From: Escherichia coli
GTDB taxonomy: Bacteria; Pseudomonadota; Gammaproteobacteria; Enterobacterales; Enterobacteriaceae
Assembly (NCBI RefSeq): GCF_003334385.1
Contig: NZ_QOWN01000002.1
Strand: one strand, 5' to 3'
Length of the DNA stretch: 64,000 bases
Below, piece after piece: positions 59,022-63,968 of this stretch; within the stretch, counting starts at the first letter, position 1; the number at the start of each line of letters is the position of its first letter. Under the pieces are notes generated by a model that had not been told where the DNA came from, made no database searches, and saw nothing but the letters and a program-made list of their open reading frames with translations. The position numbers were made by a program, and so were the translations under genes.

Positions 59022-59573
59022 ATGTCCGCTTTTAAAAAGTCACTTCTTGTTGCTGGCGTAGCAATGATTCTTTCCAATAACGTGTTTGCTGATGAAGGTC
59101 ACGGTATTGTTAAATTTAAAGGTGAAGTTATCTCTGCTCCATGTTCTATTAAACCAGGTGACGAAGATTTAACTGTAAATCTGGGTGAAGTAGCAGATAC
59201 CGTACTGAAAAGCGATCAGAAATCTTTGGCTGAACCTTTCACTATTCACCTGCAGGATTGCATGCTGAGTCAGGGTGGAACTACTTATTCAAAAGCGAAG
59301 GTTACTTTCACTACAGCAAATACCATGACGGGTCAGTCTGATCTTCTGAAAAATACCAAAGAAACTGAAATCGGCGGCGCCACTGGCGTTGGCGTACGTA
59401 TTATGGACAGCCAGAGCGGCGAAGTAACTTTAGGTACTCCGGTAGTAATTACGTTCAACAATACCAACAGCTATCAGGAACTGAATTTCAAAGCTCGTAT
59501 GGAATCCCCAAGCAAAGATGCCACCCCGGGCAACGTTTACGCTCAGGCTGACTACAAGATTGCTTACGAGTAA
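59022..59573 (+). CDS. ygiL: Fimbrial major subunit (chaperone-usher pathway) YgiL
   Basis: 183 aa; signal peptide; fimbrial-subunit C-terminus (...YKIAYE). Confidence 0.8.
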   Translation: MSAFKKSLLVAGVAMILSNNVFADEGHGIVKFKGEVISAPCSIKPGDEDLTVNLGEVADTVLKSDQKSLAEPFTIHLQDCMLSQGGTTYSKAKVTFTTANTMTGQSDLLKNTKETEIGGATGVGVRIMDSQSGEVTLGTPVVITFNNTNSYQELNFKARMESPSKDATPGNVYAQADYKIAYE

Positions 59574-59581
59574 TCGCATTT

Positions 59582-59601
59582 GGCCGGGTTCGCCCGGCCA
59601 C
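59582..59601 (+). terminator. Intra-operon hairpin between fimbrial subunit and usher
   Basis: ggccggg ttc gcccggcc stem-loop 9 nt after the ygiL stop. Confidence 0.45.
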
Positions 59602-59632
59602 ATCATTAACGGATTAATGATAAGTGGATCAG

Positions 59633-62137: not shown

Positions 62138-62152
62138 TTCAGGATGAAACTA

Positions 62153-62902
62153 ATGCGCTACTTAAATACAAAGAATATCATTGCAGCAGGAGTATTACTC
62201 TCCTGTATGAGCAGCATTGCCTGGGGTGCCATCATCCCGGATCGTACCCGTATCATAATGAATGAGTCAGATAAAGGCGAAGCATTAAAACTTACTAATC
62301 AAAGTAAAAACCTGCCCTATCTGGCCCAAACATGGATAGAAGATACGAAAGGCAATAAATCGCGTGACTTTATTGTCACTGTTCCTCCAATGGTGCGTTT
62401 AAATCCCAGTGAGCAAATTCAAATAAGAATGATAACTCAGGAAAAAATTGCTCAACTTCCTAAAGACAGAGAAACGCTCTTCTATTTTAACGTGCGAGAA
62501 ATACCGCCCAAAACAGATAAAAAAAATGTGATGCAAGTCACTATGCAGCACGCATTGAAACTATTCTGGCGGCCAAAAGCCATTGAATTAGAAGACGATG
62601 GGGTAATGACTTACGAAAAAGTTGAAATCATTCGTAGAAATGACGGTTCGATCCGCTTTAACAATAAGATGCCTTATCACGTTACGCTGGGTTATATCGG
62701 AACAAATGGGGTAACGATGTTACCACAAACGCAAAGCTTAATGGTAACCCCTTTTAGCTATGCAAATACGCAGTTTAAAAATGTTCCGTCAACTTTTCAG
62801 GTGGGTTATATCAATGACTTTGGTGGATTAAGTTTTTATGAAATAAACTGCCCTGTAGTAAATAACATTTGTAATATTTCTGTAGCCAACCGAGATCAAT
62901 AA
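62153..62902 (+). CDS. yqiH: Fimbrial periplasmic chaperone YqiH
   Basis: 249 aa from MRYLNTKNIIAAGVLLSC, the start with better SD spacing; PapD-like chaperone. Confidence 0.8.
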   Translation: MRYLNTKNIIAAGVLLSCMSSIAWGAIIPDRTRIIMNESDKGEALKLTNQSKNLPYLAQTWIEDTKGNKSRDFIVTVPPMVRLNPSEQIQIRMITQEKIAQLPKDRETLFYFNVREIPPKTDKKNVMQVTMQHALKLFWRPKAIELEDDGVMTYEKVEIIRRNDGSIRFNNKMPYHVTLGYIGTNGVTMLPQTQSLMVTPFSYANTQFKNVPSTFQVGYINDFGGLSFYEINCPVVNNICNISVANRDQ

Positions 62903-62903
62903 T

Positions 62904-63968
62904 ATGCGCTACTTGTTAATTGTTATTACTTTTTTTATGGGTTTTAGTTCATTACCTGCATGGGCAATGGACTGCTATGCTGAACATGAAGGTGGAAATA
63001 CCGTTGTCATTGGTTACGTACCAAGAATCTCTATCCCCAGCGATGGTAAAAAAGGTGATAAAATCTGGCAAAGCAGTGAATATTTTATGAATGTTTTCTG
63101 TAATAATGCACTACCAGGCCCATCTCCAGGAGAAGAATACCCATCTGCATGGGCAAATATAATGATGTTGTTAGCATCAGGTCAAGACTTTTATAATCAA
63201 AACTCTTATACTTTCGGTGTAACTTATAATGGGGTTGATTATGATTCTACATCTCCACTACCTATTGCAGCACCTGTATGTATTGATATAAAAGGAGCCG
63301 GAACCTTCGGGAATGGCTACAAAAAGCCCGCAGTCTGTAGTGGCGGTCCTGAACCGCAATTATCAGTAACTTTTCCAGTACGAGTGCAGCTATATATTAA
63401 GCTAGCTAAAAATGCCAATAAAGTAAATAAAAAACTTGTATTACCTGACGAATATATAGCACTTGAATTTAAAGGTATGAGCGGAGCAGGTGCTATAGAA
63501 GTAGATAAAAATCTGACCTTCAGGATTCGCGGATTAAATAACATTCATGTCCTTGACTGCTTTGTTAATGTTGATCTGGAACCAGCTGATGGCGTTGTCG
63601 ACTTTGGTAAAATAAATTCCCGAACAATTAAAAATACCAGCGTGAGTGAGACGTTTAGCGTAGTCATGACCAAAGATCCGGGTGCGGCCTGTACTGAGCA
63701 GTTTAATATTTTAGGGAGTTTTTTCACTACGGATATTTTGAGTGATTATAGCCATCTGGATATAGGTAATGGTCTGCTATTGAAGATATTTCATAACGAT
63801 GGAACAGCAACGGAATTTAACCGCTTCTCACAATTTGCTTCTTTTTCATCGTCTAGTGCGCCTTCGGTCACCGCACCATTCAGGGCAGAACTGAGTGCGA
63901 ACCCGGCAGAAACGGTTGTTGAGGGACCGTTTAGTAAAGACGTAATCCTGAAAATCACCTATAACTAG
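62904..63968 (+). CDS. yqiI: Fimbrial adhesin-like tip protein YqiI
   Basis: 354 aa; signal peptide MRYLLIVITFFMGFSSLPAWA; last gene of the chaperone-usher operon. Confidence 0.75.
   Translation: MRYLLIVITFFMGFSSLPAWAMDCYAEHEGGNTVVIGYVPRISIPSDGKKGDKIWQSSEYFMNVFCNNALPGPSPGEEYPSAWANIMMLLASGQDFYNQNSYTFGVTYNGVDYDSTSPLPIAAPVCIDIKGAGTFGNGYKKPAVCSGGPEPQLSVTFPVRVQLYIKLAKNANKVNKKLVLPDEYIALEFKGMSGAGAIEVDKNLTFRIRGLNNIHVLDCFVNVDLEPADGVVDFGKINSRTIKNTSVSETFSVVMTKDPGAACTEQFNILGSFFTTDILSDYSHLDIGNGLLLKIFHNDGTATEFNRFSQFASFSSSSAPSVTAPFRAELSANPAETVVEGPFSKDVILKITYN

Follow-up and report, generated by a model that had tools for sequence, protein, structure and literature searches.

An intact ygiL-yqiGHI chaperone-usher operon in Escherichia coli and a conserved pair of hairpins between its pilin and usher genes

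Previous studies have described Yqi, or ExPEC adhesin I (EA/I), in B2 strains as fimbriae visible by electron microscopy that mediate adhesion and glycan binding (Antao et al., 2009; Day et al., 2021), with reported roles in chicken-lung colonisation and in binding to GlcNAc and Lewis/blood-group glycans. We analysed a 64,000-nucleotide stretch of the E. coli contig NZ_QOWN01000002.1, hereafter the window, which carries an operon with the same four-gene architecture, the same published usher clade and likewise a hairpin after the subunit gene. However, identity to the EA/I proteins is only 59% for the pilin, 55% for the usher, 49% for the chaperone and 38% for the adhesin, and the usher genes are about 65% identical at the nucleotide level. 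EA/I is inserted at the neighbouring yqiD-ribB spacer, whereas the window operon lies between ubiK and glgS. The two operon types are mutually exclusive, and the window operon falls outside the B2-type Yqi/EA-I cluster of IMT5155, UTI89 and CFT073 at the yqiD-ribB site. The published 'Yqi' (EA/I) functions belong to this 38-59%-identical sister operon and are not attributable to the K-12-type operon, whose function we infer because the characterised system is a different one.

P pili have the closest solved usher (PapC) and chaperone (PapD), and they share the usher-before-chaperone order and a two-domain tip adhesin. The window operon differs in lacking the PapH terminator, the PapK/E/F adaptors, the PapI/PapB regulators and the phase-variation switch; it has a single pilin and an adhesin. 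In Salmonella, the Std, Stf and Ste systems gave the best NCBIfam usher matches (StdB, 695 bits; PRK15284, 644 bits). These scores were far under the curated cutoffs (e.g. 695 vs 1289), indicating related families and not orthologues.

The operon matching at the same site is that of strain MG1655, ygiL-yqiG'-IS2I-'yqiG-yqiH-yqiI (b3043-b3048), which has the same ubiK-glgS location, leader and four genes, but carries IS2I inside yqiG and Leu at YgiL residue 128 instead of the Met found here. The locus has been classified as the pi-clade 'Yqi-like' type, present in phylogroups A, B1, D and E (Wurpel et al., 2013). Archer et al. (2011), who described the genome of E. coli W, listed 'IS2::yqiG' in K-12 against intact genes in W, B and Crooks, so the contrast between K-12 and intact strains has been known since 2011, and the uninterrupted form is the common one. 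Location and near-identity of the proteins to b3043-b3048 place the window operon in the K-12-type 'Yqi-like' group. We consider it highly probable that the locus is an uninterrupted ygiL-yqiGHI allele working as proposed below. Its features were as follows.

58679..63981, no strand assigned: variable 'island' carrying the operon, between ubiK (yqiC) and glgS
58739..59021, + strand: AT-rich leader or promoter region, 283 bp, 23.3% GC
58895..58923, + strand: sigma-70 promoter TCGATA-17-TATAAA, single match in the window, at the published K-12 site
59022..59573, + strand: ygiL, major pilin subunit, 183 aa (NCBIfam NF007276)
59581..59600, + strand: hairpin 1, TGGCCGGG-TTCG-CCCGGCCA, -16.1 kcal/mol
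59603..59622, + strand: hairpin 2, ATCATTAA-CGGA-TTAATGAT, 8-bp A/T-rich stem
59633..62137, + strand: yqiG, outer-membrane usher, 834 aa, uninterrupted (Pfam and PapC alignment)
59699..59703, + strand: GTTAT, the IS2I site of K-12, unoccupied here (MG1655 alignment)
62153..62902, + strand: yqiH, PapD-like periplasmic chaperone, 249 aa (PapD match)
62904..63968, + strand: yqiI, predicted two-domain tip adhesin, 354 aa (PDB match, Pfam and model)
YqiI residues 1-21: signal peptide
YqiI residues 22-218 (62967-63557, + strand): predicted receptor-binding domain (PDB 9RWE)
YqiI residues ~228-354 (63585-63965, + strand): predicted pilin domain (weak Pfam Fimbrial match)

The 5.3-kb island had a GC content of 40.1%, compared with 51.3% across the remaining window. 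In a genome whose ubiK-glgS site is empty, homology to the window ended at about window position 58678 and restarted at about 63982, and the left boundary lay inside the final 60 bp of ubiK. Gene order and flanks agreed with the RefSeq annotation in many strains. Nucleotide identity to other Yqi-like carriers was 94-100%; relative to their fimbriae there was no substantive difference, and the window holds one more intact allele. Across the surrounding 24 kb, identity was about 100% to many wild isolates from humans, livestock and wastewater. As a separate observation, the mqsRA promoter of the window carries a 32-bp duplication that is absent from the inspected close relative HZ13.

Translation of the open reading frames at 59022-63968 gave a pilin, an usher, a chaperone and a tip adhesin in one orientation with zero internal stops. 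The complete operon with an intact usher reported in the first-pass annotation was thus borne out, the usher containing PapC_N (residues 35-177), Usher (195-747) and PapC_C (759-811) domains. YqiG residues 34-833 aligned with mature PapC 1-808 (E about 3e-172; 2.7e-172), and the protein has the N-terminal domain, barrel with plug and C-terminal domain of a full-length usher. PapC was its nearest solved usher (579 bits vs 294 bits for FimD); these scores and the published tables (Wurpel et al., 2013) place it in the pi clade of Nuccio and Baumler. The frame had earlier been given as 837 aa. It is indeed uninterrupted, but it encodes 834 aa from the annotated ATG at 59633; the longer figure corresponds to an in-frame upstream GTG at 59624. 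We set this GTG aside in favour of the ATG, a preference and not a proof, because RefSeq and MG1655 use the ATG and a GTGGA Shine-Dalgarno-like motif lies 5-9 nt upstream of it.

YgiL scored 383.6 bits against NCBIfam NF007276 (cutoff 189), with FimA and PapA as its nearest solved relatives. Reading of its sequence identified a signal peptide ending in ...NVFA and an N-terminal donor-strand motif, GxVxFxGxV, and the protein combines the N-terminal extension and the fimbrial fold of a secreted pilin. YqiH matched PapD (E = 6e-42) and keeps both subunit-anchoring residues of PapD-like chaperones, the cleft Arg (DRTR, equivalent to Arg8) and Lys (KLFWRP, equivalent to Lys112). Its nearest NCBIfam families were StdC, SteC and StfD, every score being below cutoff. 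The yqiH frame, ending at 62902, has an alternative start at 62144 beside 62153.

A search of NCBIfam returned no family for YqiI, and the Pfam Fimbrial match to residues 228-354 was weak (E = 0.0024); its domain structure was therefore taken from PDB sequence matches and a structural model. PDB 9RWE matched residues 22-218 (E = 4e-122, about 91% identical). The AlphaFold model (pLDDT 73) resembled the tip adhesins LpfD, CupB6, PapG, CsuE and CfaE, with low-confidence loops in the receptor domain at residues 89-98 and 128-151. A Foldseek search with this model did not return the 9RW* entries, and sequence similarity between the receptor domain and PapG was undetected. Sequence matches and model together point to YqiI as a two-domain tip adhesin.

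The distance from the ubiK/yqiC stop (58738) to the ygiL start was exactly 283 bp at 23.3% GC, as first annotated. This leader is richer in AT than the island and the rest of the window (40.1% and 51.3% GC, respectively), as expected of an H-NS-silenced promoter. It is identical to that of MG1655, because none of the five SNPs separating the two sequences fell inside it. Genomic SELEX in K-12 located a sigma-70 (RpoD) promoter in the yqiC-ygiL spacer with an H-NS site flag (PMC3946193), so the earlier description of the leader as typical of silenced promoters agrees with published data on an identical sequence. A literature search found no hns-mutant data for the ygiL-yqiGHI operon, and the H-NS support is this SELEX flag. 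BolA overproduction in K-12 induces ygiL, and Yqi-like transcripts have been detected and were differentially expressed among STEC isolates and groups. A generic promoter scan found fewer promoter-like sites than in shuffled sequences (10 vs 15.7). Its best leader site, 58916-58944, was not the published promoter, and the scan was not used as evidence.

A stable stem-loop had been noted between subunit and usher at 59582-59601. The stem-loop is present, but one base to the left, at 59581-59600. Its 8-bp stem consists of seven G-C pairs and a closing T-A pair. Hairpin 2 stops 10 nt 5' of the usher ATG. When the two hairpins were folded jointly, the structure scored z = -2.4 against shuffles. 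Among five alleles about 5% different overall, the 7-bp GC core of hairpin 1 was unchanged, substitutions affecting only its closing T-A pair (in O26) and its loop (in EC195), and the stem of hairpin 2 was invariant. All six variable positions of the 59-nt spacer lay outside the core stem and stem 2. Analogous stem-loops follow the pilin gene in the pap and fim operons.

The first-pass annotation had taken the hairpin to fit the usual excess of subunit over usher. An attenuator that sets the subunit-to-usher ratio is plausible by analogy, and the most likely role of the conserved twin stem-loops is to keep pilin output above usher output. Alternatively, the hairpins might have no part in expression ratios and be chance palindromes, or serve as a site for protein binding or recombination. 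Hairpin 1 has the GC-rich stem-loop of an intrinsic terminator but lacks the U-tract, its stem being followed by CATCATTAACGG, and a terminator scan found zero terminators on the + strand across the operon. The absent U-tract favours this alternative, as does the lack of an Rfam family match (zero matches for the leader and the subunit-usher spacer at E <= 1). So does the invariance of the stems with zero covariation: the compared alleles showed conservation and no compensatory changes, which leaves an RNA-level role of the stems putative. However, that all six spacer substitutions should miss the 30 core stem nucleotides has a chance probability of about 1.4%, a rough estimate assuming uniform substitutions. 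The fold also beats shuffles, the B2-type operon, with its 55%-identical usher, has an unrelated hairpin at the equivalent place, and the pap and fim precedents weigh in the same direction. We regard hairpins without a ratio role as possible but unlikely.

With the stem-loops holding pilin output above usher output, the operon would probably work as follows. Transcription would start within the 23%-GC leader, from the sigma-70 promoter roughly 100 bp 5' of ygiL, and H-NS would bind this leader and silence it under laboratory conditions. On de-repression, YgiL, YqiH and YqiI would be exported via Sec, and YqiH would use its conserved Arg and Lys to cap the subunits by donor-strand complementation. 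YqiG would take the YqiH-YqiI complex first and then polymerise YgiL below it by donor-strand exchange, giving a short fimbria with the YqiI receptor-binding domain at the tip. The stem-loops may act by stabilising or ending an RNA that carries ygiL alone; hairpin 2 could also restrict the initiation of yqiG translation. Judged from its reading frames, the locus looks functional, as first annotated.

The segment containing the IS2 target was uninterrupted in 2,907 of the 3,276 complete genomes carrying it. All four genes were annotated intact at 14 of 17 inspected non-K-12 loci, a small, non-random sample from which rows already showing IS insertions had been left out. Several independent inactivations were found: IS2 in K-12, IS1 and IS903B insertions elsewhere, the usher nonsense alleles Q222* in IAI39 and Q130* in EC195, and a yqiI frameshift in O26:H11. 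Their recurrence suggests an operon that cells can do without and that is often in decay.

Because these knock-outs are repeated and independent, yet most lineages keep the operon intact, lineage-specific antagonistic selection could act on a host-expressed fimbria, useful as an adhesin and exposed as an immune or phage target, with the twin hairpins controlling usher dosage post-transcriptionally. We hold this combined reading to be rather improbable. Distinctly improbable, in our judgement, is that the operon, though intact, is an evolutionary relic, never usefully expressed and drifting to loss with its disabling mutation pending. The series of insertions, nonsense alleles and frameshift would fit a relic, as would the H-NS flag on the promoter and the fact that no publication on surface assembly or phenotype of the K-12-type operon was found in the literature. 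Against this, the 14 intact loci were found among alleles about 5% different, the IS2 target segment is uninterrupted in the great majority of genomes, the four proteins of the window have no internal stops, the intergenic stems are conserved, and transcripts have been found, with differences from one STEC group to another. This degree of retention is an argument for purifying selection.

Comparison with K-12 confirmed the first-pass statement that its yqiG is a pseudogene disrupted by an insertion sequence. NC_000913.3 annotates b3046 as two pieces split by IS2I, and alignment revealed no internal frameshift in the window copy. The insertion comprises 1331 bp plus a 5-bp GTTAT target duplication and lies 71 bp into the yqiG coding sequence, at codon 23-24, among the signal-peptide codons. 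With IS2I excised in silico, YqiG, YqiH and YqiI were 100% identical to those of MG1655 and YgiL was 99.5% identical, and window and MG1655 differed by 5 SNPs in 5,301 bases. That the window is a K-12 derivative after precise IS2I excision can be rejected as barely credible: it would account for the near-identity over 5.3 kb and the shared usher, chaperone and adhesin proteins, but a single GTTAT copy is left, the five SNPs include YgiL L128M, the surrounding 24 kb match wild isolates, the mqsRA duplication is missing from HZ13, and intact alleles are the population norm.

Apart from getting its annotation right, an uninterrupted allele of the ygiL-yqiGHI operon is of small significance. At this locus it is K-12 that is atypical, so work on the 'cryptic' fimbriae of K-12 cannot address Yqi-like fimbriae; their study would need a strain like the source of the window or K-12 cured of IS2I. 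No paper describing the structures 9RWE, 9RWU, 9RX0 and 9RWW was found in the literature, and these recent, unpublished depositions of the YqiI receptor domain suggest that the question is already under study.

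Translation of 59022-63968 gave four open reading frames (ORFs) in one orientation with zero internal stops, and the first-pass annotation of this region as a four-gene fimbrial operon was thus accurate. Its usher frame was uninterrupted, but the 837 aa assigned to it did not stand: the annotated start is the ATG at 59633, giving 834 aa. The genes are as follows.

59022-59573, + strand, pilin YgiL, 183 aa
59624/59633-62137, + strand, usher YqiG, long ORF
62144/62153-62902, + strand, chaperone YqiH, ORF
62904-63968, + strand, YqiI, 354 aa

The left-hand neighbours are ygiD, zupT, yqiD, ribB with its FMN riboswitch, and ubiK/yqiC; glgS lies just past the right end of the window. 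The ygiL-yqiG-yqiH-yqiI locus was matched in 3,366 of 5,426 complete genomes at a cutoff of at least 90% identity. Compared with MG1655, the window differed at five positions over 5,301 bases, only one of which changed a protein.

59403, + strand, YgiL codon 128, ATG (M128) in the window and CTG (L128) in MG1655

YgiL accession WP_001272145.1 is common to K-12 C600 and the other inspected non-K-12 strains of the class with at least 99% identity; the M128 form of this major pilin may be rare, or private to the source strain.

The usher contained PapC_N, Usher and PapC_C domains, and its residues 34-833 aligned with the entire mature PapC (E = 2.7e-172). The chaperone was nearest to PapD (E = 6e-42) and retained the Arg of DRTR and the Lys of KLFWRP, the anchors of subunit C-termini. 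YgiL resembled both FimA and PapA and scored 383.6 bits against its NCBIfam equivalog, above the curated cutoff of 189. YqiI had no NCBIfam family match, and its sole Pfam match was a weak C-terminal one to Fimbrial. Its AlphaFold model (pLDDT 73) comprised two beta domains; full-length structural matches were the tip adhesins LpfD, CupB6, PapG, CsuE and CfaE, and the C-terminal half superposed on pilin domains. Because usher, chaperone, pilin and adhesin features are all present, the operon encodes all parts that a simple chaperone-usher fimbria requires.

The MG1655 annotation gives yqiG (b3046) as a pseudogene in two fragments, split by IS2I; an IS-disrupted pseudogene was what the first-pass annotation had stated for K-12. 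Alignment with MG1655 mapped the insertion point to 59699-59703, within the signal-peptide codons of the usher. The K-12 insert is a 1,331-bp IS2 between GTTAT duplicates, 71 bp into the yqiG CDS. When the element was excised in silico, the K-12 usher was 100% identical to the 834-aa protein of the window; YqiH and YqiI were also identical. Either an intact K-12 yqiG or a missed frameshift had been named as what would refute the first-pass reading, and both points came out in its favour: K-12 is disrupted and the window frame is clean. In K-12 derivatives, PGAP calls an 821-aa usher CDS starting within the right end of IS2 (3809-6274 in the C600 locus). In this hybrid, whose N-terminus is MSGNIGANPVIIIGCASAYA|VEFN, the hydrophobic core and AYA cleavage site of the native signal peptide remain, but the positively charged n-region is lost.

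A 200-bp probe spanning the IS2 site was run on complete genomes. It was unbroken in 2,907 of the 3,276 genomes carrying it, and split in two places, as in K-12, in about 364. We also inspected the annotation at 17 non-K-12 loci spanning 94-100% identity; all four genes were intact at 14, and three were disrupted.

IAI39 (L006), 1034-3538, usher, Q222* nonsense
EC195 (L008), 1034-3538, usher, Q130* and a late stop at codon 833
O26:H11 11368 (L007), 4304-5369, yqiI, frameshift

These inactivating mutations are independent and occurred in other lineages; IS1 and IS903B insertions and a deletion were found in further genomes among spread samples. An intact usher is not unusual: intactness is the majority state, with recurring sporadic decay. 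The 2011 paper on the E. coli W genome had listed "ygiL-yqiGHI, pi, W +, K-12 IS2::yqiG, B +, Crooks +", and the operon is routinely counted among the twelve chaperone-usher operons of K-12. The earlier observation is confirmed and its interpretation supported; the intact operon here is an ordinary, already documented strain difference.

Wurpel et al. (2013) defined two closely related types within the pi clade, Yqi in B2 and Yqi-like in A, B1, D and E, which exclude one another. Yqi, or ExPEC adhesin I (EA/I), is reported to mediate adhesion and chicken-lung colonisation, to form fimbriae seen by EM, and to bind terminal GlcNAc and Lewis/blood-group glycans; Antao et al. explicitly described their Yqi cluster as absent from K-12. 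The characterised operon is distinct from that of the window: it occupies the yqiD-ribB rather than the ubiK-glgS site, and its pilin, usher, chaperone and adhesin are 59%, 55%, 49% and 38% identical to those of the window. The B2-type operon occurred in about 1,000 genomes, with ~65% nucleotide identity in the usher. For the Yqi-like type, our literature search turned up no functional study. In strain 24AR0070 (L004, 2942-7914), the B2-type operon sits in the yqiD-ribB spacer, ~1.5 kb from the K-12-type site; two diverged, mutually exclusive sister operons thus use adjacent intergenic sites in different phylogroups.

Comparison with a genome having an empty ubiK-glgS site set the island bounds. 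The operon segment (~58679 to 63981) has 40.1% GC, versus 51.3% in the remainder of the window. Its left edge lies within the final 60 bp of ubiK (58679-58738), and therefore the C-terminal ~20 residues of UbiK differ between occupied and empty sites: the protein has 96 aa in island carriers and 99 aa, ending ...EARNNPAAELQSPPAIPPVDKAE, in empty-site genomes. Island insertion replaced this end of UbiK, an accessory factor in ubiquinone biosynthesis. The AT-rich leader that separates the ubiK stop (58738) from the pilin gene is exactly 283 bp, the length first reported, with 23.3% GC. Genomic SELEX in K-12 identified a constitutive sigma-70 promoter, TCGATA-17-TATAAA, with an H-NS site flag in the yqiC-ygiL spacer (PMC3946193). 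This spacer is identical in the window and K-12, and the promoter motif occurs once in the window (58895-58923). BolA overproduction induces fimbrial genes including ygiL, and Yqi-like genes are more highly expressed in HUS-associated STEC. The low-GC island and leader, the H-NS-flagged promoter and these expression reports make H-NS silencing a well-motivated candidate.

Two neighbouring stem-loops occupy the 59-nt ygiL-yqiG spacer.

59581-59600, + strand, hairpin 1, TGGCCGGG-TTCG-CCCGGCCA, -16.1 kcal/mol
59603-59622, + strand, hairpin 2, ATCATTAA-CGGA-TTAATGAT, ending 10 nt 5' of the usher ATG

The first had been correctly noticed between subunit and usher, although placed at 59582-59601. 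Jointly, the hairpins folded better than shuffled controls (z = -2.4). Five spacer alleles, ~5% different overall, defined six variable positions, none in the 7-bp GC core of hairpin 1 or in stem 2; these alleles contained no compensatory stem changes. Hairpin 1 has no U-tract, and a terminator scan made no call. The 55%-identical B2-type operon has a hairpin of unrelated sequence at the equivalent position. By analogy with pap and fim, the hairpins plausibly favour pilin over usher output; they would stabilise or process the transcript to give more pilin than usher, and perhaps also occlude the usher initiation region.

One part of YqiI matched a solved structure.

62967-63557, + strand, YqiI residues 22-218, region matched by PDB 9RWE (197-residue chain, ~91% identical, E = 4e-122)

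PDB entries 9RWE, 9RWU/9RWV, 9RX0 and 9RWW hold constructs from the YqiI adhesin family about the size of the receptor domain; no accompanying paper was found in the searchable literature. In the two alignments viewed, 9RWU was much more divergent than 9RWE, and for this reason may represent the EA/I domain of B2 strains; 9RX0 and 9RWW, judged by scores alone, ranked lower still. Between the 9RWE allele and the window, ~17 of 197 positions differ, mostly within residues 69-145, a clustering that hints at receptor-site variation. What YqiI binds, when the operon is expressed and what the twin hairpins do are modest questions, which the depositions suggest may already be under study.

Elsewhere in the window, a 32-bp tandem duplication (unit ACCTAAAAGGTTAATTACAGCAATGAAAAAGC, 42151-42182; copies starting at 42151, 42183 and 42215) lies in the mqsR-ygiV intergenic region, the promoter of the mqsRA toxin-antitoxin. 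This promoter contains three ACCT-N4-AGGT palindromes in the window and two in the close relative HZ13. The MqsA operator is a palindrome of this form, and because of the extra copy, mqsRA autoregulation may differ in the source strain. Among the best 25 near-identical genomes, only SCU-104 aligned unbroken across all 24,001 bases, and the alignments of most others covered 23,969, a difference of 32. The 64,000-nt window contained no tRNA genes. Rfam matches at the gathering threshold were located at 13200-13276, 24246-24316, 30097-30160 and 58178-58326, comprising two naRNA4/CssrE (REP-derived) elements, the sRNA ES173 and the FMN riboswitch that precedes ribB.
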